A stretch of DNA of 64,000 nucleotides from Alphaproteobacteria bacterium (GTDB lineage Bacteria; Pseudomonadota; Alphaproteobacteria; UBA11073), in the NCBI GenBank assembly GCA_965246945.1, contig CBDFFW010000001.1:90796-154795 (forward strand). Reading direction: 5' to 3'. Both the position numbers and the translations under genes were made by a program. The notes beneath the pieces were generated by a model. It worked only from the letters and a program-made list of their open reading frames with translations. It did not search any database and was not told the DNA's origin. Of the stretch, positions 7,134 to 33,609 are shown piece by piece (position 1 is the stretch's first letter; every line of letters starts with the position of its first letter).

Positions 7134-7883
7134 ATGATAGGTTTAAGACAATGGGAATCTGCCACGAAGCAGATCCAACCATTCGCCTTTTTAAAAGCGT
7201 TGACGTTATTCGTCGGTTTATCAGATCAAGAAATAGCGCTTTTTACCGATGTAGCCAAAGTCAAAACTTATAAAAAGGGGCACACACTTTATTCAGAAGG
7301 TGATGAAGCTAAGTTTTTTTATATCATTCGCGATGGCTGGGTAAAATTGTTTCACGTTACTGAGGATGGTGAAGAAGTCAATTTGGGGGTAATTACCAAA
7401 GGCAGCATGCTTGGCAAAAGTGCTATTTTTGAGAATAATATTTTTAATAATAATGCGCAGATTGTTGAAGCCGCAGAAATTGTTAGCATTCCACTGAGTT
7501 TGCTTAAAGAGCAGATCCAAAATAACCAAAAAATTGCCTATAATATGCTCAATTCCATGGTGCAGCATCAGCGAGAGCATGAAATGCAGTTTGAGCAATA
7601 TTTTCTTTATAGCGCCCCGCAGCGCATCGGCTGTTTTTTGTTGGGACTATGCCCAACCTTGGAACAGGTTGATGGCGTGATGCTTAATTTGCCGTATGAC
7701 AAAACGCTAATTGCTTCAACGCTTGGGATGAAGGGGGCTACTTTCTCGCGCGCTTTAAATTTACTGCGCACAGAAACCGGTATTCAGATTGAAGGAACTG
7801 CGGTTGTCATTGCTTCTATGTCTCGCCTGCTTAAATTTGTCGATGGCTGCTATTCGCATCATCACTTAATTAGTAAAATCTAA
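7134..7883 (+). CDS. Crp/Fnr family transcriptional regulator (cNMP-binding domain plus C-terminal HTH)
   Basis: 249 aa. cNMP-binding beta-roll pattern (YSEGDEAKFFYIIRDGWVKLF) and a C-terminal HTH (TLIASTLGMKGATFSRALNLL). AT-rich codon usage. Confidence 0.7.
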   Translation: MIGLRQWESATKQIQPFAFLKALTLFVGLSDQEIALFTDVAKVKTYKKGHTLYSEGDEAKFFYIIRDGWVKLFHVTEDGEEVNLGVITKGSMLGKSAIFENNIFNNNAQIVEAAEIVSIPLSLLKEQIQNNQKIAYNMLNSMVQHQREHEMQFEQYFLYSAPQRIGCFLLGLCPTLEQVDGVMLNLPYDKTLIASTLGMKGATFSRALNLLRTETGIQIEGTAVVIASMSRLLKFVDGCYSHHHLISKI

Positions 7884-8269
7884 ACTTCGCCAAATACGGT
7901 TTTTAACCAGCCCCATTCTAGCATGGCGGGACTATCAATATATTTTTGCCGGTTATCGGCAACGCGTTTGAGATATTGATAATTAAATGGCCATTCATCA
8001 TCTGGGGAAATCGTTTTCGTTTCGGTGATTTCGATTTTCATATTTTTAGTGAGGCGGAGCTTAAATTTTGCTTTTGGCCGATCATCAAAAACAATGGCGT
8101 GCAAGGCTGCGTCATCCGCCAGTTTTTTAAACCGCGCGGCCCAAATTTCGGTATAAGGAAATTTGCTTTTATTCTTTTCAATCGCTTCATTACAGATCTC
8201 TAAATACTGCCGAAATATCTGTTCATATTCTCTTTTTTCTTCAACGGCTTGGGCATTTTTACGAGGCAT
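7880..8269 (-). CDS. Hypothetical protein (129 aa, charged, AT-rich)
   Basis: ORF only. No recognised domain. Convergent with the Crp/Fnr gene, overlapping it by 4 nt. Confidence 0.4.
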   Translation of the reverse strand: MPRKNAQAVEEKREYEQIFRQYLEICNEAIEKNKSKFPYTEIWAARFKKLADDAALHAIVFDDRPKAKFKLRLTKNMKIEITETKTISPDDEWPFNYQYLKRVADNRQKYIDSPAMLEWGWLKTVFGEV

Positions 8270-8321
8270 GGCTTATGCATAGCATTATTTAAAAACAACG
8301 CTTTGATCTAAATCAAATGCG

Positions 8322-9275
8322 TTAATTTAAATTTGCATTGGAATACTGTTTTGTTCCGATCGCAACTGGCAGGCCACTTCCATGCTGAATGGCATTGGCC
8401 ACAACATCCCAATTTATTTCGGTGGTGAAAGTTGCCGCGCTGGCGATGGCAGTATAAATCATTTGGTTGTTGTCCTGCACGAAATGAAGATTGCCCGTGA
8501 TCAAATCGATTGGTTGGATGGGCGCAATTTCCAAATATAACGTATCGCCCTGCCAGCCAAGTTTATAGGGCTGGTTAACCACGGTAACTTCTGTGCCGTC
8601 TTCGATTAATCCGAATAAAGCTTCAATATCTTCAGGGAATAGGCGAATGCAGCCATGGCTGGTGCGTTTGCCAACACTATTCGGCACATTGGTGCCATGA
8701 ATAAGATAGCTCGGCCAGCCGAGATATAGTGCAAAATTGCCAAGCGGATTATCTGGCCCTGGTAAAACCTGTTCAGGCAATTCCGGGTTTTCAGCGCGAA
8801 TGGAAGCAGGCGGTGTCCAAATAGGATTTTGCTTCTTTCTAATAACCGTAGTAGTGCCTTGCGGTGTTTGCGAACCTTCTTTGCCAACACCAATCGGGAA
8901 GCTAAATACATGATCGATATCGGCAAAATAGAACAAGCGCAGTTCCGCCAGATTGATGACAATTCCATCGCGCGGCGCATCGGGCAAAATATGTGCTGTC
9001 GGCAAGGTAAGTATTTTACCAACTTTCAATTTTAGGGGATCGATACCTGGATTGGCTGCCAATAATTTAACGATGCCGACATCATGCTGCTGGGCAATCT
9101 TATATAAATTATCATTTGGCTGTACGGCATAAGAAGTGATGGTGCCAATCAGGTCATCATTAGCGAAAAATTCTGTGGCTTGCACCGCCGACGTTGCCCA
9201 CAGCGATAAAATGAGTAGCAAGGCAAAACGAAACAGAATTTGCCGAAAGTGTAATTTGGTAACAGATATAATCAT
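8322..9275 (-). CDS. L,D-transpeptidase (YkuD/ErfK family) with LysM domain and signal peptide
   Basis: LysM motif (YAVQPNDNLYKIAQQHDVGIVKLLAANPG...KVGKILTLP). YkuD catalytic motif (HGTNVPNSVGKRTSHGCIRL). I chose the start at the Met that precedes the signal peptide (MIISVTKLHFRQILFRFALLLILSLWATSAVQA). The tracked ORF extends to 9380. Confidence 0.75.
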   Translation of the reverse strand: MIISVTKLHFRQILFRFALLLILSLWATSAVQATEFFANDDLIGTITSYAVQPNDNLYKIAQQHDVGIVKLLAANPGIDPLKLKVGKILTLPTAHILPDAPRDGIVINLAELRLFYFADIDHVFSFPIGVGKEGSQTPQGTTTVIRKKQNPIWTPPASIRAENPELPEQVLPGPDNPLGNFALYLGWPSYLIHGTNVPNSVGKRTSHGCIRLFPEDIEALFGLIEDGTEVTVVNQPYKLGWQGDTLYLEIAPIQPIDLITGNLHFVQDNNQMIYTAIASAATFTTEINWDVVANAIQHGSGLPVAIGTKQYSNANLN

Positions 9276-11725: not shown

Positions 11726-14683
11726 ATGACAAAATCAGAATGTCCATTTATGCCGCAAGGCGCGACCAAACATGGGTTTGATCTTTTTCGTTATACTTTG
11801 GAAAAGCCAGACCGTGATCTGTTCGATGCTTGGCAGGATACTGTAACTACTGAGGCGCAAAAAGAACTTTATGATATATTATCAACCGAAGCACGTTTAA
11901 AAGTAGCTCAAATTGTGCATGTTTATGGTTTTTATAATTCACAATTAATCGCAAAAGCGCATCGTGAAGCAATTAAATTGCGGCAGGATAATGATGATCT
12001 GCCAGGCCAGACGATCGCTGGTGCTATTCAACGTGCTGCAGAAATGGGTTTAACAGCCGAGCAGATGAAAGAAGTTTTGTTGCGGCAAATTGCTTTATCT
12101 TTAACGGCGCATCCAACTCAATATAATTTACCTGAGCATGTACAGGCACGACAAGTTTTGGCTAAAGCAATACAAAAAGACGATCCCTCTAAGGACGAGA
12201 TCACAGAAGCGCTAAGTCTACTTTTAAATACGCCAGCTGGATTTGCTGAAAAAAAGATCCCGCAACAGGAATTGTTAGAAAATCTTGAGCATGCAACGAA
12301 TTTATTTTGGGTACTGCCTGGTCTACTTGATAGCGTTCGAAAATCGTTAGACATTGTGCATAGACAATTTCCTAACAATGGTTACGGCTATATTTTCACT
12401 GGTATCGAACCAGACATAAAATCAATTGTATTGCGCTTATGGCCGTGTGTAGACCGCGATGGCAATCCAGCGATTACAACGATGGTTACCACACTGGGTA
12501 TTGCCCAAAGCCAAGAAAAAATAGTTGATTTATATATAAATTCTATTGATTACATTTGTAAATTGAATGGCGATAAAGCACCGCGCAAAGTTACTTTCGA
12601 CAGATTACAGCGATTGAAACAAGCTTTAATCGACGGATCAATTTCGCCAAAAAATGATGCGGATATGGAGAAATTTGGTTTATTGCTAACAACTTGTTTA
12701 AAAGTGGAAGATGGGGATGAAGCATCAAAGCAACTACGCTGGCTAGATATGCGGGCACGTGTTTTCCGGTGGCATTTAGGTAAGTTTCAACCACGCCAGG
12801 AAGCAGGTGCCCATACCCAAGCGGTAGCCGCTATTGGTCCGCTTTTGCAGTTCGAAAATGGTTTCGAAGATACTGCTTATAATGCAAATATGCCCCAACC
12901 AGAAAAGCAGCAACAACTGCAAAAAATATTGGCCGCAATAAAGAATGCCAATATTGGTACTTTAGATCGTCTTAATAAAACTATCAGCGATCAATTATCT
13001 ATTGTAAGCCCTCAAATTTATAAGAACTACACTATTTTTAATCTCATAAGCGAAAACCCTGCGCATTTTTGCGATTACATTATTTCAAACGCCGGTAAGC
13101 CAAGCGATGTGTTGGAAGTTCTGGTATTGGCCAAGCTGGCTGGAGCTGAACAGACAATAAATATTCGTATGCTTTGTGAGACGTTGACTGATTTAAAGGC
13201 CATGCCACAAACCCTTGAAACGCTTTTGGCAATTCCTGAATATCGCGATTTCATCAAGCAAAATCACAATAATCGTTTACCTGTTATGATTGCGCTTTCA
13301 GATACTCAGCGCCAACACGGCCCAGCTATTATTTTCGATCAAATCTTAACGATGGTTGATTTATGTAAAGTTGCTTTAAAGCATGAGATCGAGCTCGAAA
13401 TTATGTGGGGTGGCTCTGATGATTTATACCGTGGTGGCGGTGATATTTCGATGTATCCTTATTACCTGGCCCGCAGCATTGTGGGTTATGCGGCAACCAC
13501 TAATCAAAAACTGAGCAAACTGGCAGCGTGCGTAAGAGAAGTTTCGTTTACGCTTCAAGGCCGGCAAGTGGAAGATGTGATTGGCAATACTGCATCTGCT
13601 TGGCGTCTGGGCGAGCGTATGTTTGCTGCCGCAACCAACTTTTATAGCTTTCTACGCGGCGAACACACAGCACAATTTCAGTTAGATTTGGCAGAAGAAT
13701 ATCAAGCCAATGAAGCTGCACGCGATGCCTTGCAGCCCTGCATGCGTGCCTATGAATTCATGCGCGGACCTTTGCTTGACACATTAAGTTTAGCTGTAGT
13801 GCCTGCTGCCGCAGTTAAAAAGTTAAACACTTCTTCTAGGCCAGACAAACGGCCAACGGTTATTGGCAATCCAGACCCACGTGAAATTGATGCATTGCCA
13901 TTAACTGATACCCGCGCCATTACCAACCAGTTTGCGGTGCAATTACCTGGATTAGAAATAAACGGTTGGTTTGGTTTAACCCAATTGGCTGACCTTGATG
14001 CCCGAATTGTTCAAAACTCTCCCATTCTACAGGAAATGCTTAAACGTGCGCTTATCTGTTTAGAACGCACATATCTTGAAAAAGTTTGGATGTTTTCTGG
14101 ACTTACACCACCTGCTTCCTGCATAGCCGCTTTGTACGATACCGCATTCAATCAGGTTTGGCAGCGGGAATTGCAACTTAGTATCAATGGCAAGCTAGAT
14201 CAAACCAATAAGCTCATACAATTTGATTTTAACAAATATATGCCCGTTGTATTGCAGCAATTGGATTTGGATGATACGTTAATAAATCGTCAGACTGTTT
14301 TATTAACCTGGCTTGAAGCAGAATATAAGCGTACGGAAAAAGTAGTTTGTCGGAAGTTTTTTAATAATCCCAAATTTAGTTCTCAATCCGCACGTGAAGC
14401 AGTAAAAACTTTTCCACGTTTATCTGAAGAACTTGTTTTGCAGAAAAGAAATATTGCGCCTATGCAAACATGGCTGGCAATGGCCACTACAGAATTGTAC
14501 CAAACGCCTCAGCCGACCCAAGCGCAACTTACTGCCCTGCAGGCTTTTGCCCAGGTAATTGCTGAAGGCACGCGTACGCCTAATGCTTACATTAACCACA
14601 CGCCCGGCTTTGAGCCAGACATGCGCAAAGTTAGTGATCATTTAAGTAAATTTGGCCCCAAAACATTCGCTGTTACTATTTAA
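11726..14683 (+). CDS. Divergent phosphoenolpyruvate carboxylase (PEPC)-like protein with substituted catalytic motifs; AT-rich
   Basis: 985 aa. It is colinear with E. coli Ppc through several signature blocks. LTAHPTQ matches [17 protein letters not shown] matches [31 protein letters not shown] matches [29 protein letters not shown] matches [21 protein letters not shown] corresponds to [32 protein letters not shown] corresponds to IELTLFHGRGGSIGRGGAP, with the His and the first Arg replaced. The C-terminus ends at ...FAVTI and lacks the conserved ...AGIAAGMRNTG tail. Confidence 0.7.
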   Translation: [985 protein letters not shown]

Positions 14684-15641: not shown

Positions 15642-16970
15642 ATGCTATCATCACTATTCCATATTGATCGGCTTGCCATCATTATGCTGGCTTTAATTGG
15701 TGCTATTGGCCTAATCATTTGGCAATTTTCACGGCGTTATTTGCAGGGCGATCAATTATATCGTGTTTTTTTCCAGCGGCTCGCATGTTTATTGGCATCA
15801 TTGGCATCATTGGTCATTACCGATAACCTAATTGTATTTTTAATCAGCTGGGGATTGGCCAATTATTGGTTGGTAAAATTGATGGTTCACAAGTCGGAAT
15901 GGTCTGCCGCCAAAGCGGCGGGGGAATTAACAGGTAAATCGCTTGGCCTGGGTTTTGCCAGCCTAGTTGCTGGCTTTACCTTGCTTTATTGGCTAACCGG
16001 CACGGCTTCTATTCAAGCGATTTTGCTGCACAATAATCAACACCCGGCTTTGCTGCTTGCCCTTGGATTAATTTTATTTACCGCCCTCATCCAATCAGCG
16101 ATTTGGCCTTTTTCCGGCTGGTTGAAAAATTCGCTTAATTCACCAACCCCTGTTTCGGCCATCATGCATGCCGGTCTGGTGAATGGGGGCGGTTTTTTAC
16201 TGGTACGTTTTGCGCCGCTTTATCTGCAACAGCCGTTGCTGCTCCAAATCATTTTTGTGCTTGGCATTACCAGCGCGGTGATTGGCACGTTATGGAAACT
16301 GCTGCAGCCGGATATTAAGCGGATGCTGGCTTGTTCGACCATGGCGCAAATGGGTTTTATGCTGGCGCAATGCGGCCTTGGTTTATTCCCGGCGGCAGTG
16401 GCCCATCTGTGCTGGCATGGCCTGTTCAAAGCCTATTTGTTTTTAGGCGCAGGTGGCGCGGCCCAGGAAAAGCGCTTGCCGATTATCCATCCGAATAGCT
16501 TTACCGCTTTTGCTTTGGCGCTGCTCTGCGGCTTACTTGGCAGTTATGGCTTTGCATTGGCCAGCCAACATGCATGGCTGGCGCCCAATAGCATATTGGT
16601 ACTGCAAGCGGTGGCTTCAATAGCTGCTGCGCAACTCGCGCTCACCCTGCTGCAAAATAAGCCATGGCAACGGCTGCCGCTGGCCGTTTTATTATGCGCC
16701 ATCGCTGGTGGTATGTATGGCGGCACCGTTGGCTTGGTTGAGCAAGTAATGGCACCGCTGCAAATTTTCCAACCGCAATCACTAAATGCTCTGCATATCA
16801 GTGCCATCGTTATCCTGGCCGCTGGTTGGCTCGGCATGTTGTTTAGCCAGCAGCTTGGCCGCCTAACCCAGCAGCCGTTTTTCTTACGCGGTTATGTGCT
16901 GGCGCTAAATGCAAGTCAGCCAAGCCCCGCTACCATCACCGCCCACCGCAACCATTATCGCTTAGGATAA
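15642..16970 (+). CDS. dabB: DabB/MpsA-like proton-conducting membrane transporter (NuoL/MrpA/NDH-5 family, PF00361-like)
   Basis: 442 aa polytopic membrane protein. Complex I antiporter-like subunit motifs are present (SPTPVSAIMHAGLVNGGGFLL; STMAQMGFML; HLCWHGLFKAYLFLGAG). It is immediately followed by a DUF2309 gene. Confidence 0.75.
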   Translation: MLSSLFHIDRLAIIMLALIGAIGLIIWQFSRRYLQGDQLYRVFFQRLACLLASLASLVITDNLIVFLISWGLANYWLVKLMVHKSEWSAAKAAGELTGKSLGLGFASLVAGFTLLYWLTGTASIQAILLHNNQHPALLLALGLILFTALIQSAIWPFSGWLKNSLNSPTPVSAIMHAGLVNGGGFLLVRFAPLYLQQPLLLQIIFVLGITSAVIGTLWKLLQPDIKRMLACSTMAQMGFMLAQCGLGLFPAAVAHLCWHGLFKAYLFLGAGGAAQEKRLPIIHPNSFTAFALALLCGLLGSYGFALASQHAWLAPNSILVLQAVASIAAAQLALTLLQNKPWQRLPLAVLLCAIAGGMYGGTVGLVEQVMAPLQIFQPQSLNALHISAIVILAAGWLGMLFSQQLGRLTQQPFFLRGYVLALNASQPSPATITAHRNHYRLG

Positions 16971-16973
16971 ATC

Positions 16974-19208
16974 ATGCAAACTGCCCTGAAAACCAAAGTT
17001 GTTGAAGTGACTGAAAACCCAGCCTACGACCTCGGCGAAGCGATTGCGACGGCTTGGAATTATATTGCGCCGTTCTGGCCGCTGAAAAACTTAATTGCCT
17101 GTAATCCCTTGCAAGGCCTAGAAGATTTACCTTTTGAGCAAGCGTTAAATAAAGGCATCGTGCTGTTTCAGCGCGCTGATCTGCCATCACCGCTGCTGGC
17201 TGTTAATCGCCAAACCATCAAATGGTGTCAGGTATTGTTTGACGATGGACAGGCGAGTTTAACCATGCCGCTGCGCGAACAGGGGTTTTTCGCCGCCTGG
17301 CGGCAATTGGCGGTGTTCGATGCACAGCTGCATCAAAATAATCAATTTCATAAAATGTGGTTGAACCGCCTGCCGCTTTCGGCTGAACAAACCATTGCGG
17401 AATGTTTGGTGAAATTGAATATTCCAGCAGCACAACACGAAACGTTTTTAACTTTATTATTAACCACCTTGCCTGGCTGGGCGGCTTATGCCAAATACCG
17501 TCTGAATTGGGAGCCAGATCAAGCGAATGCCACTTGCCCCATCCGCTCGGCTGATTATCTGGCAGTGCGCTTGGTTATCACCACCCTGCTATGGCCGGAT
17601 GCGGCAGAGTTATTGGTGGAACAAGATAATATTTCACCAGCAACTGATATCTTGGCCACCATCACTACCAAAGAAACAGCTTACCGCCAGGATTTATTGG
17701 CGAATTTGAAGCGGCAAGCGGCTGCCCCGCCAACTATCCGCCCAGCCGCACAAATGATATTCTGCATCGATGTGCGTTCCGAACCAATGCGCCGGGCGAT
17801 AGAAGGGCAGGGTGACTATGAAACCTTTGGCTTCGCAGGCTTTTTTGGCCTGCCGATAAGCTTGCAAAATGAAAAAACGGGCGAACGCTATGCATCCTGC
17901 CCAGTTTTGCTGCAACCTAAGTATCATTTGTCCGAAACCAGTTGCACTAGTGGGGATTGTGCTTCAGATAATGCGAACAGTAAGGCGCGTTTGCGTTTGT
18001 ATAAAAGTTTCTATCAGGCATTGAAATATCATTTTACGACCCCGTTCGCGCTGGTTGAAACGTTAGGCTTATGGGCCGGTTTGTGGATGGGTTTGCGCAC
18101 ACTGGCGCCGCAGACAGCTATTCAATTAAAGACCAACATTGTTAAAAAAATCAGGCCTGAAGTGCAAACCCAATTTGATATTGCGGGCAGCATCCCCTTT
18201 GCCGATCAATGTACTATGGCTGGCGGCGCCTTGCGTATGATGGGGTTAACCCAAAATTTCGCGCCACTAGTCGTTCTATGCGGCCATGGCAGTACCACGC
18301 AAAACAACGCTTATGCCACGGCCTTGGATTGCGGCGCGTGCGGCGGACGGCATGGCGGGAGCAATGCGCGTATTTTGGCGGCGATTTTGAACCATCAAAT
18401 GGTCCGGGTAGCTTTGGTGCAAGACGGTATTGTCATTCCGGCCGATACGCATTTTATCGCCGCGCAGCATGATACCACCACGGATGCGATTAACTTGTTA
18501 GTCGATGACGAATTATTAGGTGATCATCGCAACCAGGTCAGCACGTTACACGCAGCATTATCCCAAGCACAACACACCAATCAGCGAGTGCGCGCCGCAC
18601 AAATGAATACAGAGCTTGATCATATTCAATTGCGTAGCTGTGACTGGGCCCAAACCCGCCCGGAATGGGGCTTGGCACGCAATGCGGCGTTTATTGTTGG
18701 GCCACGTAGTTTAACTGCAACATTAAATTTAGCGGGCCGTAGTTTTCTGCATTCCTATGACTGGCAGCAAGATGCTAATAGTACAGCGCTTACTACCATT
18801 TTAACCGCGCCGATGGTGGTTGCCCAATGGATTAATAGCCAGTATTTATTTTCCAGCTTGGATAATGTGGCTTATGGCAGCGGCAGCAAAATTACCCAAA
18901 ATGTCACTGGCAAAATGGGGATTATGCAGGGCAATGCCAGCGACTTAATGCATGGTTTGCCCCTGCAATCGGTTTACTCCAACGACAACAAACCTTATCA
19001 CCAGCTGCAACGGTTGCTAACCGTGGTTTACGCGCCCAAAGCGAAAATTGATAAAATTATCGCCGCGCAGCCCGTTTTACAAAAACTATTCGGCAATGGC
19101 TGGGTGCAATTGGTTTGCCTTGAACCAGCCAGCAAACTGGCCTATCAGCTGCAGCGTGATTTCACTTGGGAGAAATTAGTAGGTGAGCATGTCATGCTAT
19201 GCGGGTAG
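16974..19208 (+). CDS. dabA: DabA/MpsB-like DUF2309 protein (beta-carbonic-anhydrase-like component of the DAB inorganic-carbon uptake system)
   Basis: 744 aa. It starts 4 nt after the dabB stop. It contains a beta-CA-like CxDxR motif (IFCIDVRSEP) and an H...C cluster (CGHGSTTQNNAYATALDCGACGG). Length and arrangement match DUF2309 partners of NuoL-like proteins. Confidence 0.75.
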   Translation: MQTALKTKVVEVTENPAYDLGEAIATAWNYIAPFWPLKNLIACNPLQGLEDLPFEQALNKGIVLFQRADLPSPLLAVNRQTIKWCQVLFDDGQASLTMPLREQGFFAAWRQLAVFDAQLHQNNQFHKMWLNRLPLSAEQTIAECLVKLNIPAAQHETFLTLLLTTLPGWAAYAKYRLNWEPDQANATCPIRSADYLAVRLVITTLLWPDAAELLVEQDNISPATDILATITTKETAYRQDLLANLKRQAAAPPTIRPAAQMIFCIDVRSEPMRRAIEGQGDYETFGFAGFFGLPISLQNEKTGERYASCPVLLQPKYHLSETSCTSGDCASDNANSKARLRLYKSFYQALKYHFTTPFALVETLGLWAGLWMGLRTLAPQTAIQLKTNIVKKIRPEVQTQFDIAGSIPFADQCTMAGGALRMMGLTQNFAPLVVLCGHGSTTQNNAYATALDCGACGGRHGGSNARILAAILNHQMVRVALVQDGIVIPADTHFIAAQHDTTTDAINLLVDDELLGDHRNQVSTLHAALSQAQHTNQRVRAAQMNTELDHIQLRSCDWAQTRPEWGLARNAAFIVGPRSLTATLNLAGRSFLHSYDWQQDANSTALTTILTAPMVVAQWINSQYLFSSLDNVAYGSGSKITQNVTGKMGIMQGNASDLMHGLPLQSVYSNDNKPYHQLQRLLTVVYAPKAKIDKIIAAQPVLQKLFGNGWVQLVCLEPASKLAYQLQRDFTWEKLVGEHVMLCG

Positions 19209-26947: not shown

Positions 26948-27892
26948 CTAATTCTCTTGTCCAAAGGCAGTTTCTAACCGTTTAACCAGTTCAATAGCTT
27001 CATCGCTGTTGGTCTCGGGCGCTTCAATAAAAAACTCCCAAACCTTACCGCTGCCTTTAGGTTCATATAGTAACAGCCAGGCCCGTGTGGGGTCGCCCTG
27101 AAAATGACAGGCAAGTTCAGCTTTTACAGCCGTGCCATCCGGATAATCAACGGGCAAGCCCAGCGTCGATTGAAAATACCCGCGGCATTGTGGCTCCAAC
27201 GGGTCAACGCGGTTTAATAATAAGGTATCCAAACTTTCATGGCTGCGTTGATTGCTTAAGCGCACATAGGTATTTTGCGATTTAATCAAATAGGTTTCTT
27301 TATCCGCCACCGTTTTATCCAACAGAATATGGGCATCCACCCAGCTTGCCGTATGTAAAACCGGCTCGATATCAGAAGGCAGGCCGCCGACATCCGGCTG
27401 CTGCGACCAGGCGGAAGCGATACATGCGCGCAATTGGCCAGTCACACTGGTCATATTCGGCAATTTGAATTCCTGGGCTGTACTGTCTTTACCGCTACCA
27501 GCACGCAAGGTCAGCGCTTGTTTTTCGCCTAGTTCGCTTAGCCATTTCTCTTCCCGCCCCAGCGCCATATTCACCTCGCCATTGGCGGCAAGGGTAATGC
27601 CTGCTTGGCGGATTAATTTGCCAGCCACTAAAATCTGAATGGGTTGGCTGGCGGCCACGCGCCAGGCGGAGGGCTCATCCGGTGTAAACAACATGGCCAT
27701 TTGCCCCAGGCTGTTACGGGCTAGCCGAAAACTGGGTTTGCCATTGGGTGCATAGCTGGCCATGCAATAATCGGCCACCCGCAGGGGGATCGAGGTCTCA
27801 CTGCGCAACTTCCACGGCACTTCGGCCTGCGCCAAGCCAGGCAGCAAAACAGCTATCAAAAAGGCCAAACCGATCGCTTTCATCACACGCAT
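26948..27892 (-). CDS. Hypothetical secreted protein (signal peptide MRVMKAIGLAFLIAVLLPGLAQA)
   Basis: The ORF extends to 27931. I chose the start at the Met that precedes the signal peptide. No recognised domain. Confidence 0.45.
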   Translation of the reverse strand: MRVMKAIGLAFLIAVLLPGLAQAEVPWKLRSETSIPLRVADYCMASYAPNGKPSFRLARNSLGQMAMLFTPDEPSAWRVAASQPIQILVAGKLIRQAGITLAANGEVNMALGREEKWLSELGEKQALTLRAGSGKDSTAQEFKLPNMTSVTGQLRACIASAWSQQPDVGGLPSDIEPVLHTASWVDAHILLDKTVADKETYLIKSQNTYVRLSNQRSHESLDTLLLNRVDPLEPQCRGYFQSTLGLPVDYPDGTAVKAELACHFQGDPTRAWLLLYEPKGSGKVWEFFIEAPETNSDEAIELVKRLETAFGQEN

Positions 27893-28032
27893 GTTACTTG
27901 TCCGCCACAGAAATAAGGGTTTTGCTCGCACATCACATAGTTTTGCACGATTCGCGATGTAAGTATTTGTCAGTAAGTTGCAAATCGAGTATAGTCTTTT
28001 AAAGGTCGGGTGGCAGCAAGTCGCAGGGCCAA

Positions 28033-29514
28033 TTGTCAGGGTTTTCAGATATGTCTAATAATTCTCGCGCTAAAGCAGCGCCCAAAAAAAAAGTGAGTCA
28101 ATCCCGTGCTGCGGCCAAACCCGTCAGCGCCAAATCAGTTAGTAAGGCGACCGCTAAAAAACCCGTTGCCAAAGCACCGGTTAAAACAGCGAACCAGAAG
28201 TCAGTAAAAGCTGTCGCCAAACCAGTTGCCGCCAAAAAAGCCACCGCTAAAACGGTTGCTAAACAAATCGCTAAAAAACCAGCAGTTGTTTCTAAAAAAG
28301 CGCCCGTTAAAATGGTCGCTAAGCCTATTGCGAAAAAGTCAGCGCCAGCGAAGATTGCAGCCAAAAAAACTGTTGCACCCACCAAAACAGTTAGTAAAAC
28401 AACAGTTAAGCCCGTGGCCAAAACCAATAGCAAAATGCCGGCAAAACCGGCTAATGCAGCAAAATCCTCAACCAAAGCAGCCGTTAAGCCAGCCAGCAAA
28501 ACGCCTGTGAAGACAGTGGCAAAAGCGCCAGTAAAAGCAATTACCAAGGCACCCGCCAAAGCTGTGGCCAAAGCACCCGTAAAACCGGTAACCAAACCCG
28601 TATCAAAAAAAGCAACGGCGAAGCCAGTTAATACGCCAACCAAAACGGCAGCCAAACCCGCGTCAGTTAAACTAGCTGCTCAAGCAACACCAGTGGTGGC
28701 CAATAACAATCAACCAGTGATTGAAAAAGCAGCCGCACCCGCTAAGCCGAAAGCAACCAGCAAAAGCAAAGCGGCGGCACTGAAACTCAGCACTAAAGAA
28801 AAACGCACGCTCGTGCGAATTGCCAATGCCAATGTCACAGCCGTGGCCGATAGCAGCACGCGCACCATGATGTCGGCCGTGCAAATGGCATTGCAAGCCA
28901 CACTAAACCGTATTTCCGCCAATGCGCCGGCAGCAGCCAATGACGATGCACAAAATGCGAAAACAGCCGCCAAAGCTGCGGCCGAGCCCGCCGATATCAA
29001 ATCACCTTTCAAAATGGGCGATATGGTGGTTTACCCTGCCCACGGCGTTGGTAAAATTGAAGCGGTTGAGATCCAAAAAATTGGCGAACAAGAATTACGC
29101 CTGTTCAAAATTCATTTTGAACATGAACGCATGACCCTGCGCGTGCCGGTCATGCGCGCCACCGGTTCCGGTTTGCGCAAATTGGCATCGGGCGAATTGC
29201 TGGATAAAGCGTTTGAAACCATGCGCGGCCGCCCGCGTATCCGCCGCGTGATGTGGAGCCGCCGCGCCCAGGAATATGAAGCCAAAATTAATTCCGGTGA
29301 TCCGATTTCGATTGCGGAAGTATTGCGCGATTTGCGCCGTAATGCGGAGCAAGGCGAACAGTCTTACAGCGAACGCCAAATTTTCCAATCGGCCTTGGAA
29401 CGTTTTGCACGCGAACTCGCCGCCATTGAAAAAATCGCCCAAGATGAAGCGGTTAAAAAATTAGAAAGCCTATTAATTCGCGCCGCACAAAGCGGCAACA
29501 GCTCGGCTGCCTAA
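28033..29514 (+). CDS. CdnL/CarD-family RNA-polymerase-binding regulator fused to a ~320-aa N-terminal histone-H1-like Lys/Ala/Pro-rich repeat tail
   Basis: One continuous 493-aa ORF. Residues 1 to about 320 are AKKPVAKAPVK-type degenerate repeats. The last ~166 aa, from MGDMVVYPAHGVGKIEAVEIQKIGEQELRLFKIHF at nt 29017, are a canonical CarD_CdnL N-domain plus the CdnL C-domain. No SD-like sequence precedes the internal Met. Confidence 0.65.
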   Translation: MSGFSDMSNNSRAKAAPKKKVSQSRAAAKPVSAKSVSKATAKKPVAKAPVKTANQKSVKAVAKPVAAKKATAKTVAKQIAKKPAVVSKKAPVKMVAKPIAKKSAPAKIAAKKTVAPTKTVSKTTVKPVAKTNSKMPAKPANAAKSSTKAAVKPASKTPVKTVAKAPVKAITKAPAKAVAKAPVKPVTKPVSKKATAKPVNTPTKTAAKPASVKLAAQATPVVANNNQPVIEKAAAPAKPKATSKSKAAALKLSTKEKRTLVRIANANVTAVADSSTRTMMSAVQMALQATLNRISANAPAAANDDAQNAKTAAKAAAEPADIKSPFKMGDMVVYPAHGVGKIEAVEIQKIGEQELRLFKIHFEHERMTLRVPVMRATGSGLRKLASGELLDKAFETMRGRPRIRRVMWSRRAQEYEAKINSGDPISIAEVLRDLRRNAEQGEQSYSERQIFQSALERFARELAAIEKIAQDEAVKKLESLLIRAAQSGNSSAA

Positions 29515-29525
29515 TTTTTATTAAA

Positions 29526-29594
29526 ATCCCTTCGCACAAAGGGACTTAATTTATTTAGCAAAGTGAAAACCTCAATTTTGGTTGAGGTTTTTTT
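29526..29594. terminator. Tandem hairpins between the convergent cdnL-like and gltX genes; a likely bidirectional terminator
   Basis: Hairpin 1 is tccctt-cgcaca-aaggga (29526-29545). Hairpin 2 is aaaacctcaa-tttgg-ttgaggtttt followed by a T-run (29566-29594). Confidence 0.6.
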
Positions 29595-30982
29595 CAATTT
29601 AAATTATTTAGCCTTCTTGTAATTTCTTCATATCCCAATAACGCACACAAAGCACCGATATCAGGTGCTTGGGTTGTGCCGGTTAGCGCTGCACGTAAAG
29701 GCATGCCGATATTTTTAAATGGGATATTATTTTCTTTGGCATGCGTTTGTAAAGCAGTTTGAATTTTTGTTGCTTCAAAAAGTTGTACGTTTTCCAATAC
29801 TGGCAAAAGATTTTGCAACACTTGTTTGGCTTCCGTGGTTAAGGCTTTTTGCGCATCAGCATCATAAATTAGCGGGGCTAGTAAAAAACCTAAAGCTTGC
29901 GCGAGTTCTATCAATGTTTTCACGCGTGGTTGGTATAATGCAATCGCTTGCTGAATTTTGCCTGCTTTTTCTGCATAAGCGCTTTGCTGCTCAGCAGGAA
30001 TGAACGGTTTTACCAATTCATATAAATCCGCCGCGCTGCGTTGCTGAATATAATGGGCATTCAAATTTAACAATTTTACGCGGTCAAAGCGGGATGGGGA
30101 TTTGCCGACGCCATCCAGCGTAAACCACTCAATCGCTTGCTCAATTGAAATGGTTTCGGCATCGCCATGCCCCCATCCGAGGCGCAGCAGGTAATTACGC
30201 ATGGCTTCCGGCAGAAAGCCTTCATCTTTATATTGATCAACCGCCACCGCACCATGGCGTTTCGACAATTTGCCGCCGCTTTCGCCATGGATCATCGGGA
30301 TATGTGCAAAGATTGGAATGCTCCAACCACAAGCTTGATACAGTTGAATTTGCCTAAAGGTATTGGTGAAATGGTCATCGCCGCGGATTACATGTGTCAC
30401 TGCCATATCATAGTCATCCACTACCACGGCCAGCATATAGGTCGGCGTGCCATCGCCGCGTAGGATAATCATATCATCCAGCTGGCTATTGGGCACGGTC
30501 ACCGTGCCTTGCACTTGGTCATCAACCGTGGTTTCACCGCTGGTTTCCGCGCGCAGGCGAATGGCGGGTTTGATGCTGGGATCGGCGTCAAACGGTTTGC
30601 CATGGCGGCAGCGGCCGTCATAACGGGGCTGTTCACCGGCGGCCATAGCGGCTTCGCGCTTGGCGGTTAATTCTTCAGACGTGCAGTAACAATAATACGC
30701 TTTATCCTGCGCCAATAAATCATGGGCCACGGCCGCATGGCGCGGGGCGCGACTGAACTGATAAATCTCCTCGCCATCCCAATCCAGTTTCAACCAGCGC
30801 ATACTATTAAGAATGGTTTGAATGGCGGCTTCGGTCGAACGCACGCGGTCGGTATCTTCAATTCTAAGCAAAAATTTTCCGCCTTGATGCTTGGTAAACA
30901 GCCAATTGAATAAGGCAGTCCGCGCGCTACCAATATGGAGCATGCCAGTGGGTGACGGCGCAAAACGGGTAACAACAGACAT
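29594..30982 (-). CDS. gltX: Glutamyl-tRNA synthetase
   Basis: 462 aa. HIGS motif (PSPTGMLHIGSARTALFNWLF) and KLSKR-type motif (GGKLSKRHGA). Confidence 0.9.
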   Translation of the reverse strand: MSVVTRFAPSPTGMLHIGSARTALFNWLFTKHQGGKFLLRIEDTDRVRSTEAAIQTILNSMRWLKLDWDGEEIYQFSRAPRHAAVAHDLLAQDKAYYCYCTSEELTAKREAAMAAGEQPRYDGRCRHGKPFDADPSIKPAIRLRAETSGETTVDDQVQGTVTVPNSQLDDMIILRGDGTPTYMLAVVVDDYDMAVTHVIRGDDHFTNTFRQIQLYQACGWSIPIFAHIPMIHGESGGKLSKRHGAVAVDQYKDEGFLPEAMRNYLLRLGWGHGDAETISIEQAIEWFTLDGVGKSPSRFDRVKLLNLNAHYIQQRSAADLYELVKPFIPAEQQSAYAEKAGKIQQAIALYQPRVKTLIELAQALGFLLAPLIYDADAQKALTTEAKQVLQNLLPVLENVQLFEATKIQTALQTHAKENNIPFKNIGMPLRAALTGTTQAPDIGALCALLGYEEITRRLNNLN

Positions 30983-31026: not shown

Positions 31027-31449
31027 TCAAGCAGCTGAAAGCAGCAGATCATTCACCAGCAAAATTTTCTCCGGTGTTTGTGATGAATGGTGGTGGATGA
31101 TTTTCCATATGCCATCGCCGTCATTCAATAATGAGAACGAAAAACGGGCATGCACGTGGCTGCCTTCATTTGCGCTAAAAAATTCATAATCACCCGATAA
31201 AATAACAATATTGCCGCAAGTCAATTTATGCGGCAGGCCATCGCTAAACTGCACCTGAATACCGCGGTCTAATAATGATTTAAAATAGGTTGCGCGGGCT
31301 TGCTGGTTTTCCAGAAACGCCCCCACCATGGTCGGCACCAGCATGGCATGTTCAGCATACAGTGACAGCACGGCCGGAATATCGCCGCGATTTAAGGCGG
31401 CCGCCCAATTTTGCAAGACAGCGCCATACGGATTTTGCCAATCTTTCAT
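31027..31449 (-). CDS. NTF2-like / SnoaL-like (DUF4440-like) small protein; the start is uncertain
   Basis: The ORF is open to 31563. The domain-sized product (~140 aa) begins at MKDWQNPYGAVLQNWAAALNRGD. The fold assignment is tentative. Confidence 0.45.
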   Translation of the reverse strand: MKDWQNPYGAVLQNWAAALNRGDIPAVLSLYAEHAMLVPTMVGAFLENQQARATYFKSLLDRGIQVQFSDGLPHKLTCGNIVILSGDYEFFSANEGSHVHARFSFSLLNDGDGIWKIIHHHSSQTPEKILLVNDLLLSAA

Positions 31450-31569
31450 GAAAATAAACATGCAAGCATCTCGGTTTCCTGTCAATTCCCGCTTGTTTTT
31501 CAAAGCGATGCATGGTGTGTGGAACATGTGGTTACAGCGGTTGGCGCTTATTTGCACAAGCAATTACAA

Positions 31570-33609
31570 ATGGAACGCACGCGGTGGTTCTATTGGTGGC
31601 CGGTGGGTTTTGGCACTGGCATTGCCATTTATTTTGTCCTGCCGGCTGAGCCGGTTTGGTGGTTAAGCGTAACTGTATTTTGCGGCGTGATTTTGCTAAC
31701 CATGCTGCGCTGGCAGCAAGATGATTGGCGGGCTATGGGTCTAGGTGCGCTCGCGCTCACTCTCGGGTTTGTGGTTGCGCAAACCCAAACCACTTTGAAC
31801 CGGCATCCCATTTTAATGCAGGAAGTGGGGCCGATTTCTATTCAGGGTCGGGTGATTGATATTGATGAACGGCCAAAAGATGCTGTGCGCTTAACGCTCG
31901 ACCAGGTAAATTTATGGCGTAATCCAATCAAGCTGTATCAAGTGCGAATTAATGTCCGCAAATTTCAGAATCATATTGGCCCAGGTGATATTGTGCGGGT
32001 GAAAGCGGTGCTGCGGCCGCTGACCGAACCAGCCTATCCTGGCAGTTATGATTTTACGTTGTTTCAATATTTCCAAGGGTTGAGTGCCACGGGTTTTAGC
32101 TATGGCAACCCGCGCGTCATTAAACCGGCCACACCGAATGATTGGCATAATCGTTTGGAAGTTTGGCGGCAAAGAATTGCCACCCATATCCATCAGCATT
32201 TCACCAATAATACCGATGCTGCAACGCGCAGTATTTTAGTGGCGCTGATGACGGGCGAACAAAACAGCGTACCCGCCGAAACCACTGAAGATTTGAAAGC
32301 CGCTGGTATTTACCATATCGTTTCCATTTCGGGGTTGCATATCAGCTTTGTCGCCGCGCTCGCATTTGTCATTTTACGGCGGCTATTGGCGCTTATTCCA
32401 TTTCTGGCGCTGCGCTTACCGCTTAAAAAAATTGCAGCTGTATGTGCGTTGTTAATTGTGGCGGCATATACCGCTTTGGTGGGCGCGCCGGTGCCGACCC
32501 AGCGGTCGGCATTGATGTTGGGGCTGGCCATCATCGGTATTTTATGCGACCGCGGGCATGGCGTATTGCGGCCAGTGGCTTGGGCGGCCATGATCATTTT
32601 ATTTATTGAACCGGTGGCAGTGTTGAATGTGGGCGTGCAACTTTCATTTGCCGCGGTAACGGGGTTATTGGTGTTTTACGAAAGCATTCAACAGCCATTA
32701 AAGCTATGGTGGGCCACGCGCCCATGGTGGCAGCGCTGGGCCGAAGGGATCTTTTTTGCCTTGTGCAGTTCATTGGTCGCCACCTTGGTGACGCTGCCAA
32801 TCATGGCGTATTATTTTCATGACCTTGAAGTTTATGGTCTGCTCACCAATATTCTGGCGCTGCCATTGACCGATTTTTGGATCATGAGCAGCATTTGTTT
32901 AAGTTATGTGCTCATGCCTTTTGGTCTTGATGGCTGGTGTTTGGATTTGGCCGCAGATGGCACGCATTTGTTGCTATGGCTGGCCCATTTTATGGCCGGC
33001 CTGCCGCAAGCCAGCCTGGCATTACCCAATCTGCCGGCTTTAAGTTTACCCTTATTTGGAGCCGGTTTAGTTTGGTTGCTGTTATGGCAACAAGCATGGC
33101 GCTGGTGGGGCCTATTATGTATTGGCCTTGGTTTCAGCTTATTCATAGTCACGCCACTTCCCCATCTATTGATCGCCCAGAATGGGCAAATTGCTGTATT
33201 GAAATTAAGCAATGGCACCTATATCCGGCTAAGCCGTGCGCGGGAAAGTTATTACACCGAAAGCTGGGCTGCTTATCTCAACCAACGAGAAATTCCGGTG
33301 TGGCAGAATGCACAAACCGATGCGTGGCTGCAATGCGATGACAATGGCATCTGCCAATATGCGCCAACTGGGTTAAAACCAGTTACCTTGGCATTACGTA
33401 AAGATTTCACCGACGGTATATGTCCAACAGCGGATATATTGCTGCAATTAAGAACAGCTGTTCCATGTCCATTGGCCGATAGTATCACCGCCAATGATTT
33501 ATTGCGCAGCGGCACGCAAAGCTGGTTTGCGGCGGGCCCGCAATGGCAGGTGCAAACGGTGGCCAACACCCGCGCCATGCGGCCATGGTTTAGCAATCAA
33601 CCGGAATAA
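31570..33609 (+). CDS. comEC: ComEC/Rec2 family competence DNA-uptake channel protein
   Basis: Polytopic membrane protein with the ComEC competence domain pattern (GIYHIVSISGLHISFVAAL ... ). I chose the start at MERTRWFYWWPVGFG. The tracked ORF begins at 31411 and would overlap the opposite-strand gene. Confidence 0.75.
   Translation: MERTRWFYWWPVGFGTGIAIYFVLPAEPVWWLSVTVFCGVILLTMLRWQQDDWRAMGLGALALTLGFVVAQTQTTLNRHPILMQEVGPISIQGRVIDIDERPKDAVRLTLDQVNLWRNPIKLYQVRINVRKFQNHIGPGDIVRVKAVLRPLTEPAYPGSYDFTLFQYFQGLSATGFSYGNPRVIKPATPNDWHNRLEVWRQRIATHIHQHFTNNTDAATRSILVALMTGEQNSVPAETTEDLKAAGIYHIVSISGLHISFVAALAFVILRRLLALIPFLALRLPLKKIAAVCALLIVAAYTALVGAPVPTQRSALMLGLAIIGILCDRGHGVLRPVAWAAMIILFIEPVAVLNVGVQLSFAAVTGLLVFYESIQQPLKLWWATRPWWQRWAEGIFFALCSSLVATLVTLPIMAYYFHDLEVYGLLTNILALPLTDFWIMSSICLSYVLMPFGLDGWCLDLAADGTHLLLWLAHFMAGLPQASLALPNLPALSLPLFGAGLVWLLLWQQAWRWWGLLCIGLGFSLFIVTPLPHLLIAQNGQIAVLKLSNGTYIRLSRARESYYTESWAAYLNQREIPVWQNAQTDAWLQCDDNGICQYAPTGLKPVTLALRKDFTDGICPTADILLQLRTAVPCPLADSITANDLLRSGTQSWFAAGPQWQVQTVANTRAMRPWFSNQPE

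Follow-up and report, generated by a model that had tools for sequence, protein, structure and literature searches.

A CdnL-type RNA polymerase-binding regulator with a long polycationic N-terminal tail, a candidate DNA-binding arm

CdnL/CarD proteins are global factors, often essential, that stabilise open promoter complexes. The characterised CdnL proteins are stand-alone polypeptides of 160–200 aa without a DNA-binding domain (PMC4374960, PMC2919716). CdnL, which carries no basic domain, did not bind DNA by itself and presumably piggy-backs on RNA polymerase (RNAP); in the current view it reaches promoters only by riding the polymerase (PMC4374960). In Alphaproteobacteria, CdnL has been proposed to compensate for −10 elements without −7T (PMC7703639, PMC8407463). 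CarD, a protein found in myxobacteria only and acting together with CarG and ECF sigma factors (PMC4374960), carries a basic disordered domain that suffices whatever its exact sequence and maximises activity (PMC8156234, PMC4374960). Pseudomonas AlgP has a net charge of +55 and KPAA/KPVA tetrapeptide repeats; the repeat peptides bind DNA, and AlgP-type tails bind polyphosphate (polyP) too (PMC9239181).

In the window (the whole 64-kb stretch of DNA analysed), a CdnL gene with a long N-terminal extension is present. Its open frame (28033–29514, + strand) would encode 493 aa if the TTG at 28033 (+), the first possible start codon in frame, were the start. On sequence grounds, the ATG at 28051–28053 (+), which has a weak AGG(G) 9 nt upstream, is the most likely start codon, because the resulting N-terminus, MSNNSRAKAAPKKK, resembles those of relatives (MSNSKAKK, MPNSKAKK). 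The frame given by the sequence-only reading, made before this analysis from the DNA letters, thus stands, while its 493-aa product gives way to one of 487 aa. Since a promoter-like site (TTGTCA-17 nt-TATAGT at 27967–27995, +; 10/12 matches in a consensus scan, a pattern match only) precedes this ATG, the transcript would start ~45–50 nt upstream of it and the mRNA would cover the whole extension. An intrinsic terminator-like hairpin (12-bp stem, 4-nt loop) with a trailing T run lies ~50 nt past the stop codon (29565–29600, +). The gene product consists of three parts: a 232-aa tail, an 86-aa linker, and a complete CdnL module. With 487 aa, it falls outside the definition of CdnL as a stand-alone protein of 160–200 residues (PMC4374960). 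The ~320-residue repeat tract described earlier matches the whole extension ahead of the module (~318 aa) in length, but the repeats occupy only ~232 aa of it and the remaining 86 aa are non-repeat linker.

Analysis of the sequence and the predicted fold indicated that residues 319–487 are a complete two-domain CdnL module with the key residues intact, in agreement with the sequence-only reading. The Tudor-like RNAP-interacting domain (CarD_TRCF_RID, PF02559; 29008–29181, +; residues 326–383 of the 493-aa frame) was matched with an E value of 1.8e-11 (44 bits, cut-off 23), and AlphaFold2 predicts it as a five-strand beta module with pLDDT >90; in Foldseek, this N-terminal domain of the module matches the N-terminal domains of CdnL and CarD. 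The helical C-terminal domain (CarD_C, PF21095; 29206–29463, +; residues 392–477 of the 493-aa frame) was matched over profile positions 1–86 of 87 with an E value of 1.1e-21 (77 bits, cut-off 23.1), and its predicted helices span residues 381–482. An NCBIfam mfd match was rejected as spurious, since it scored 17.5 bits where the cut-off is 800. The fold superposes on Thermus CarD with a target TM score of 0.86 (rmsd 2.2 Å) and on Mtb CarD in the open promoter complex (RPo) with a target TM score of 0.83, and the module aligns end-to-end with Streptomyces and Mtb CarD with WSRR kept. RNAP beta contacts are made by R47 in Mtb CarD and by V39 and P54 in Caulobacter CdnL. Here, R364/V365/P366 align with Mtb CarD R47/V48/P49 at the sequence level only; all of 121 sequences keep P366, and the close clade has R or K at position 364. 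Trp402 (nt 29254–29256), located after the basic loop RGRPRIRRVM, aligns with the Trp of the N-WSRR motif in Mtb and Streptomyces CarD and is likewise invariant in the 121 sequences; the corresponding residue (Mtb W85, Thermus W86) is described as a minor-groove wedge upstream of the −10 element (PMC4593161, PMC8407463). The protein ends in Ala-Ala followed by the stop codon (29506–29514, +; ...NSSAA*), as do 87/150 relatives. A C-terminal Ala-Ala or Val-Ala degron of the ClpXP type occurs in >80% of alphaproteobacterial homologues (PMC5324124), and its function has been demonstrated for the Ala-Ala of Caulobacter CdnL (PMC5324124, PMC11034885).

The polycationic tail (residues 1–232; 28051–28746, +) consists of A 25%, K 24%, V 13%, P 11%, T 9% and S 7%. 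It has a net charge of +56 and a pI of 11.8, contains one acidic residue and lacks aromatic residues. The Lys-Lys spacing is 4 in 32/54 intervals. In the comparison with shuffles, this spacing accounted for 57% of intervals in the tail and 11% in the shuffles. The units are degenerate and include KAPV, KATA, KPVA, KAVA, and KTVA; a perfect KPAA unit was not found in the tail. AlphaFold2 gives the tail no secondary structure (pLDDT ~50), predicting disorder, and it is the only K/A/V/P/T-rich tract of this kind in the window. The polycationic N-terminal extension likened earlier to histone H1 tails and AlgP was borne out, with the H1 likeness limited to composition. The non-repeat linker (residues 233–318; 28747–29004, +) contains a segment of about residues 241–290 (nt 28771–28920; LKLSTKEKRTLVRIANANVTAVA...SAVQMALQATLNR) conserved only in the closest relatives, with no PDB match at E up to 10 and no Pfam match. 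In the alignment of the closest clade, K245, K249, R252, L254, I257, A258, T263, A266, S275, A276, A280, and T284 are invariant; AlphaFold2 predicts two short helices at 248–260 and 276–287 (pLDDT 56–68), and the linker dN/dS in relatives is 0.06–0.10.

To judge from these sequence searches, the tailed architecture is not unique and is found in many alphaproteobacteria. The best 120 full-length matches all carry a K/A/P/V-rich basic tail of 110–270 aa. When the CdnL module alone was used as the query, 110 of the best 150 relatives (50%-identity representatives) had an extension of at least 60 aa, and a tail was present at ~15/72 parsed GTDB loci. The rarity implied by the sequence-only reading thus did not hold, and the KAP-repeat extensions it had proposed seeking in other alphaproteobacterial CdnL orthologues were found in many of them. 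The best CdnL-domain identity in the GTDB scan was 64% (Micavibrio-like and Rhodospirillaceae MAGs), and a search of 5.8 billion proteins gave no match above 54–62% identity. The convergent arrangement of cdnL and gltX (cdnL -> <- gltX) is shared only by the contigs of relative P0004, whose GltX is 33% identical to that of the window and possibly a different paralogue, so positional orthology by synteny was rejected as weak. N-terminally extended CdnL found no mention in the literature searched, including that of groups working on CdnL, and the tailed proteins apparently form a large, diverse, and unstudied set.

We propose that the tail is a non-specific DNA binder that anchors CdnL to DNA, like the basic C-terminal domain of myxobacterial CarD; reasoning by analogy, we give this reading a probability of about 0.55. 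The tail is likened to known DNA-binding tails because of its charge of +56, its 4-residue Lys period and its predicted disorder, and from this likeness we infer both its DNA binding and an effect on transcription. In the proposed mechanism, the Tudor-like domain would dock the CdnL module on the RNAP beta-1 lobe, while the helical domain and the Trp wedge would stabilise the open promoter complex. The 232-residue tail, carried on the 86-aa linker, would serve as a sequence-nonspecific electrostatic DNA-binding arm that may grip flanking or nucleoid DNA, raising the local CdnL concentration on the chromosome, and may also touch upstream or nearby DNA at promoters. The expected result would be a greater occupancy or lifetime of CdnL-RNAP-promoter complexes, and the C-terminal Ala-Ala would expose the protein to turnover by ClpXP, as happens in Caulobacter. 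The geometry may differ from that of CarD, and the linker may matter, because the tail is at the end opposite to CarD's and adding a FLAG tag to the N-terminus of Caulobacter CdnL impaired it (PMC5324124).

A possible but rather unlikely alternative is that the main ligand of the tail is polyP (or RNA) and not DNA. During starvation, polyP would then sequester the tail or pass it to proteases, so that, alongside ClpXP turnover, CdnL would be lost from RNAP and the promoters of rRNA and anabolic genes would be switched off. The near-identical charge of AlgP and its KPAA/KPVA repeats, set beside the +56 and the 4-residue Lys period found here, are consistent with this alternative, as are the enrichment of AlgP with polyP granules, for whose spacing its repeat domain is needed (PMC9239181), and the specific clearance of Caulobacter CdnL during nutrient stress (PMC11034885). 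However, sequence cannot separate polyP binding from DNA binding, and DNA binding is known for the AlgP repeat peptides as well (PMC9239181). Among the ten genes on each side and ten large ORFs annotated with Pfam, none adjoining the gene was recognised as a polyP gene. The polyP ligand is also compatible with the DNA tether and does not exclude it. In a more speculative scheme, to which we likewise assign a low probability, the tail would make CdnL a chromosome-resident, polyanion-sensing regulator. During growth, CdnL would coat or scan DNA and be pre-loaded at promoters; in starvation, polyanions (polyP, RNA) or proteolysis would strip it off; and the tail length, which ranges from ~100 to >500 residues between lineages, would set the global transcription capacity.

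Slightly further down the scale, we consider it doubtful that the tail has a non-nucleic-acid role, as a spacer, a solubility element, a multivalent RNAP-clustering hub or a half-life tuner, with selection on composition and length only. Such a role would accord with a tail that evolves much faster than the domain (66–84% identity in close pairs, compared with 92–98% for the CdnL domain) and varies widely in length, from 110 aa to the 362 aa reached among the best 150 CdnL-module relatives. Some relatives (P0150, P0171, P0199, and P0201) carry long extensions that are non-basic or even acidic, so DNA binding cannot be what the extension does in every case. The extension state is also scattered on the CdnL-domain tree, with 30 changes compared with 35.6 ± 2 in shuffles, which fits either a labile accessory feature or gene-calling noise; this neighbour-joining tree of 150 CdnL domains, being poorly resolved and affected by gene-call noise, does not separate a single gain of the tail from multiple gains. 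On the other side, 78/110 of the extensions of at least 60 aa are strongly basic. Across 145 tails, a Lys spacing of 4 is three times as frequent as in shuffles, and the tail studied here is almost free of acidic residues. A polyanion ligand is favoured over a neutral spacer because of this basicity, periodic Lys spacing and scarcity of acidic residues.

The module could also be made separately. Two in-frame ATGs lie at its very start, at nt 29014 and 29023 (Met-328 and Met-331 in the 493-aa numbering), in place of the Met-327 at nt 29017 named in the sequence-only reading. Canonical CdnLs begin only ~8 residues upstream of the equivalent position, and initiation at either ATG would yield a canonical CdnL of ~165 aa beside the full-length protein, with the ratio of the two products being what matters. 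We consider this improbable: a Shine-Dalgarno-like sequence is absent upstream of both 29014 and 29023, an internal start would lose the conserved Phe-Lys of strand 1, promoter-like matches nearby fall downstream of the ATG, and the Met itself is not conserved, with FKAGD or FKTGD in relatives where FKMGD occurs here. A second, canonical cdnL may be present elsewhere in the genome, outside the 64-kb window.

Whether the tail is coding was judged by stop codons, by shuffling and by dN/dS in relatives. Across the extension, the sense frame contains 0 stops, and the two remaining + frames contain 11 and 27; stop-free shuffles numbered 0/20,000 for the 318 extension codons and 2/20,000 for the 232-codon tail. 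The DNA repeats of the tail are 65–81% identical with every spacing a multiple of 3, and they include a tandem repeat with a 24-nt period, 3.1 copies and 68% matches. In relatives, the dN/dS of the tail is 0.17–0.30 and indels are whole-codon only; this translation-level constraint is observed here, as are the architecture, the intact module and the wide occurrence of the tailed form. AAA/AAG usage in the tail is 80/20, the same as in the window's other genes. Codon-usage log-odds were rejected as a discriminator, since they did not single out the sense frame and one antisense frame scored higher but contained stops. The conserved frame, the codon-register repeats and the dN/dS below 1 in relatives indicate that the tail is coding and is neither a UTR nor an artefact. 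The mirror ORF noted earlier on the complementary strand is present (28098–28655, −; 185 aa, hydrophobic), and 3 stops interrupt its frame over the length of the tail. We judged it to be a by-product of the codon composition of the sense strand and not a gene, because selection is seen in the sense frame, which continues into the CdnL domain. The reading that the repeat region is a long untranslated 5′ leader or arose by faulty assembly or fusion, with a normal CdnL as the true product, is very improbable: long 5′ UTRs or intergenic regions are reported for alphaproteobacterial cdnL genes (PMC5324124) and the log-odds fail to favour the sense frame, but the open frame, the selection on it, repeats too degenerate for mis-assembly and the same fused architecture in >100 independent assemblies all contradict it.

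If the DNA-tether reading is true, tailed CdnLs would revise the view of CdnL as riding only on RNAP for many environmental alphaproteobacteria. They would also serve as a natural experiment for the contribution of a disordered basic tail to a basal transcription cofactor. The polyanion-sensing scheme, if true, would be a natural fusion of a linker histone-like tail with a basal RNAP cofactor, and an independent, mirror-image reinvention of the myxobacterial CarD design in alphaproteobacteria. In practice, long low-complexity N-termini of CdnL should escape trimming by gene callers and annotators.

In comparison with stand-alone CdnL, the protein shares both domains, the Trp wedge, the RNAP beta-contact residues and the Ala-Ala, and differs in its ~318 extra N-terminal residues, 232 of which form the polycationic disordered tail. 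The Lys/Ala/Pro-rich, disordered and highly basic composition is shared with the C-terminal domain of eukaryotic linker histone H1. H1 tails have a Lys content above the 24% of this tail and less Val and Thr. The winged-helix globular domain (PF00538) gave no match, only the two CarD domains being found in Pfam at E up to 0.1, and the tailed CdnL is not a histone. Mycobacterial HupB and Streptomyces HupS combine an HU fold with a C-terminal K/A/P-rich tail that adds DNA affinity; they differ in the folded domain, in the C-terminal position of the tail and in having a role in nucleoid architecture instead of RNAP binding. The tail resembles AlgP and PhaF in its charge of about +55, predicted disorder and near-absence of acidic residues, and in part in its 4-residue Lys periodicity, with units of the K-P/A-V/A-A type including KPVA. 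It shows no detectable sequence homology to them and its repeats are far less regular. Those of AlgP and PhaF lie at the C-terminus and are joined to a helical or phasin domain in place of a transcription-factor module. Myxobacterial CarD has the same design, an RNAP-binding CdnL-type module joined to a basic, disordered and presumably DNA-binding region. Its tail is C-terminal and the tail here is N-terminal, with only 5 residues after the last predicted helix. The C-terminal HMGA-like domain of CarD, made of an acidic segment and repeated RGRP AT-hooks, has no counterpart here: an acidic segment is absent, and the sole RGRP (392–395) lies inside the folded CarD_C domain. The protein groups with alphaproteobacterial housekeeping CdnL. 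Because the tail is at the end opposite to CarD's, the comparison suggests that the likeness to myxobacterial CarD reflects convergence rather than descent.

Analysis of the cdnL locus revealed an open frame of 493 aa from a TTG codon (28033..29514, +). Starting instead at the in-frame ATG 28051 yields a 487-aa protein with the N-terminus MSNNSRAKAAPKKK; residues follow the 487-aa numbering. Sequence patterns placed a promoter-like site (TTGTCA-17-TATAGT, 27967-27995, +) upstream and a strong terminator-like hairpin (29565-29592, +) downstream. Pfam assigned exactly two families to the protein, CarD_TRCF_RID (nt 29008-29181, +) and CarD_C (nt 29206-29463, +), both far over the curated cut-off, and an NCBIfam scan added nothing meaningful. 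Alignment of residues 319-487 with the solved CarD proteins of Streptomyces, M. tuberculosis and M. smegmatis runs over the full length (E ~1e-20). Residues 321-482 are predicted by AlphaFold2 with pLDDT >90, and in Foldseek the model matches Thermus CarD (target TM 0.86, rmsd 2.2 Å) and Mtb CarD in open-complex structures (target TM 0.83). Both domains, the alignment and the CarD fold confirm the complete CdnL module claimed by the sequence-only reading. That alignment shows a conserved WSRR-motif Trp and pairs R364-V365-P366 with Mtb R47-V48-P49; W402 is invariant across 121 aligned sequences. Ala-Ala forms the C-terminus, a feature shared by 87 of the best 150 of 4074 relatives; in Caulobacter, this ending is a ClpXP degron clearing CdnL in starvation (PMC5324124, PMC11034885). 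The loop ahead of the Trp wedge (nt 29224-29256; ETM-RGRP-RIRRVM-W402) includes RGRP, the core tetrapeptide of AT-hooks. Across these 12 positions every one of the 121 aligned relatives has 3-5 basic residues, with RGRP in only 2 and KGRP in 9, and the loop is strongly basic in the window protein, whereas that of Mtb CarD is neutral or acidic. The basic loop may add DNA contacts beside the wedge in alphaproteobacterial CdnL.

The region ahead of the module consists of two unlike parts, a repeat tract and a linker, rather than one uniform repeat. The tract (residues 1-232, +) is a polycationic K/A/V/P/T/S tail with a net charge of +56, a pI of 11.8, one acidic residue and no aromatics, in which 32 of 54 Lys-Lys spacings equal four; no K/A/V/P/T-type tract was found in the other ORFs of the 64-kb window. 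By composition and alignment, residues 233-318 (+) form a non-repeat linker, so the earlier figure of about 320 residues of repeats fits the whole extension, with the repeats proper covering only ~232. AlphaFold2 gave the tail a pLDDT of ~50 without predicted secondary structure and, with modest confidence, two short helices in a linker segment of 45-50 aa that is kept in the eleven closest relatives. This segment (KKMARTLVKIANA...SAAMAALRATVAL in the window's clade) has 12 positions invariant among those relatives, including K245, R252, L254, I257 and A258, and matched nothing in Pfam or the PDB. Linker motifs differ between tailed-CdnL subfamilies, RPVYRPIQVINKPLxPLQPVRQMAPV being common to a large group (alignment of the relatives P0012-P0120). 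Comparison of close pairs revealed 66-84% identity in the tail versus 92-98% in the domain, indicating that the tail evolves faster. The window extension (319 aa) exceeds those of the nearest relatives (172-209 aa) by 110-147 residues.

It is established for the family that CdnL/CarD docks on the RNAP beta-1 lobe and uses a Trp wedge to stabilise the open complex (PMC4593161, PMC4381055). As a stand-alone protein, CdnL displayed no DNA binding of its own, and RNAP is believed to carry it to DNA (PMC4374960). Myxobacterial CarD has a basic, disordered domain at its C-terminus that binds DNA, maximises activity and is replaceable by histone H1 or an H1 tail (PMC4374960, PMC8156234). AlgP repeat peptides bind DNA, and AlgP also associates with polyphosphate granules (PMC9239181). 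From these precedents, we infer with a probability of roughly 0.55 that the tail serves as a DNA-binding arm without sequence specificity. Such an arm would hold CdnL on the chromosome or on promoter-flanking DNA and would thereby raise its occupancy at RNAP-promoter complexes. It is unlikely that sequestration of the tail by a polyanion (polyP or RNA) serves as a starvation switch. Quite unlikely, too, is a disordered region with a role set by composition only.

An extra short isoform through internal initiation is very improbable: in-frame Met codons do occur at nt 29014 and 29023 (+; not at nt 29017, as first read), but no Shine-Dalgarno-like sequence was found upstream of these ATGs, and in the alignments a start there would remove the conserved Phe-Lys opening strand 1. 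Across the extension the protein's own frame has no stop, versus 11 and 27 in the two remaining + frames, and stop-free shuffles numbered 0/20,000 for the 318 extension codons and 2/20,000 for the 232-codon tail. Repeats in the tail DNA are only 65-81% identical, with all copy spacings multiples of three, and the best tandem array has a 24-nt period, 3.1 copies and 68% matches, making collapse or expansion during assembly implausible. AAA supplies 80% of Lys codons, the same as in the window's other long ORFs; whole-codon-usage log-odds do not discriminate frames at the tail's composition and were not used as evidence. For four closest-clade members, DNA sequences showed that dN/dS was 0.17-0.30 in the tail, 0.06-0.10 in the linker and 0.01-0.16 in the CdnL module, and indels comprised whole codons only. 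The window's frame evidence and the relatives' tails, dN/dS and indels indicate that the tail is translated and under purifying selection, though relaxed. An untranslated or artefactual extension is scarcely credible, being contradicted by the stop-free frame, the degenerate repeats in codon register and the relatives' dN/dS. The long mirror ORF noticed on the complementary strand is present (28098..28655, -, 185 aa); over the whole tail, its frame contains three stops, and it is a by-product of K/A/P codons on the opposite strand.

The best 120 database matches were all CarD-family proteins of 270-450 aa with a K/A/P/V-rich tail of 110-270 aa ahead of the CdnL module. With the module alone as query, 1.84 billion 50%-identity representatives yielded 4074 matches, 466 at E <=1e-30. 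Among the best 150 of these, N-terminal extensions reached at least 60 aa in 110, at least 200 in 52 and at least 300 in 11 (longest, 362 aa), fractions that are upper bounds because 50%-identity clustering over-counts variable-tailed proteins; 78 of the 110 were strongly basic. Lys spacing of 4 was threefold more frequent than in shuffles over 145 tails and fivefold in the window tail. Of 72 loci parsed from GTDB species representatives, which were ranked by how similar their CdnL domain was, ~15 had a K/A/P tail (90-140 aa). These came from Aestuariivirga and other Hyphomicrobiales MAGs, and no such tail occurred in the Brevundimonas, Terasakiella or Micavibrio-like genomes. An uncultured Rhizobiales MAG (locus L070, 1635-3905; CAIZGQ010000439.1) encodes a CdnL with a ~540-aa N-terminal extension, far longer than the window tail and S/A/K/T-rich, with four perfect tandem AKTVA units. 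Four relatives (P0150, P0171, P0199, P0201) have Ala/Pro-rich extensions of 120-290 aa that are net acidic or neutral; extensions are therefore not always polycationic, and DNA binding is not their sole role in the CdnL family. By these searches, the window protein belongs to a large and diverse group, within which its tail is long; databases name the members simply 'CarD family transcriptional regulator'.

Alphaproteobacterial genomes or MAGs are the source of all the nearest CdnL domains, and the cdnL neighbours are ordinary chromosomal genes (LexA, a PAS-GGDEF-EAL protein, gltX, ComEC, ABC-F, TolB, CpoB-like), with flagellar genes and transketolase also in the window. The divergent ORF beside cdnL (26948-27931, -) encodes 327 aa that match no Pfam family and have an N-terminus resembling a signal peptide (MKAIGLAFLIAVLLPGLAQA); its promoter-like site (28016-27988, -) overlaps that of cdnL. 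gltX (29594-30982, -) lies tail-to-tail with cdnL, an arrangement shared by the contigs of the relative P0004 (gltX at 7422-8765 of locus L083). GltX identity between window and P0004 contig is only 33%, versus ~75% for the CdnL modules, and the two GltX may be different paralogues. Downstream of PEP carboxylase (11726-14683), a Proton_antipo_M-family membrane protein and adjacent DabA (Pfam E 9e-225) look like a DabB/DabA inorganic-carbon uptake pair (15642-19208, + for both genes). The listed ComEC ORF (31411-33609, +, TTG start) overlaps an opposite-strand SnoaL/DUF4440-like ORF (31027-31563, -) by ~150 nt; the true ComEC start probably lies further downstream.

No description of an N-terminally extended CdnL was found in the literature searched, including the main CdnL papers, which is not proof of absence. 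Those papers define CdnL as standing alone, with 160-200 aa, and present CarD-type fusions as confined to myxobacteria (PMC4374960). The CdnL module and the tail type are known already, and their combination and orientation are uncharacterised. By the database matches, this combination is widespread and not peculiar to the window's genome. The finding is a family-level database pattern whose function we infer; a tailed CdnL would moderately surprise transcription-initiation specialists and is directly testable. In comparison with AlgP, the window tail has almost equal charge and a similar tetrapeptide period (PMC9239181).
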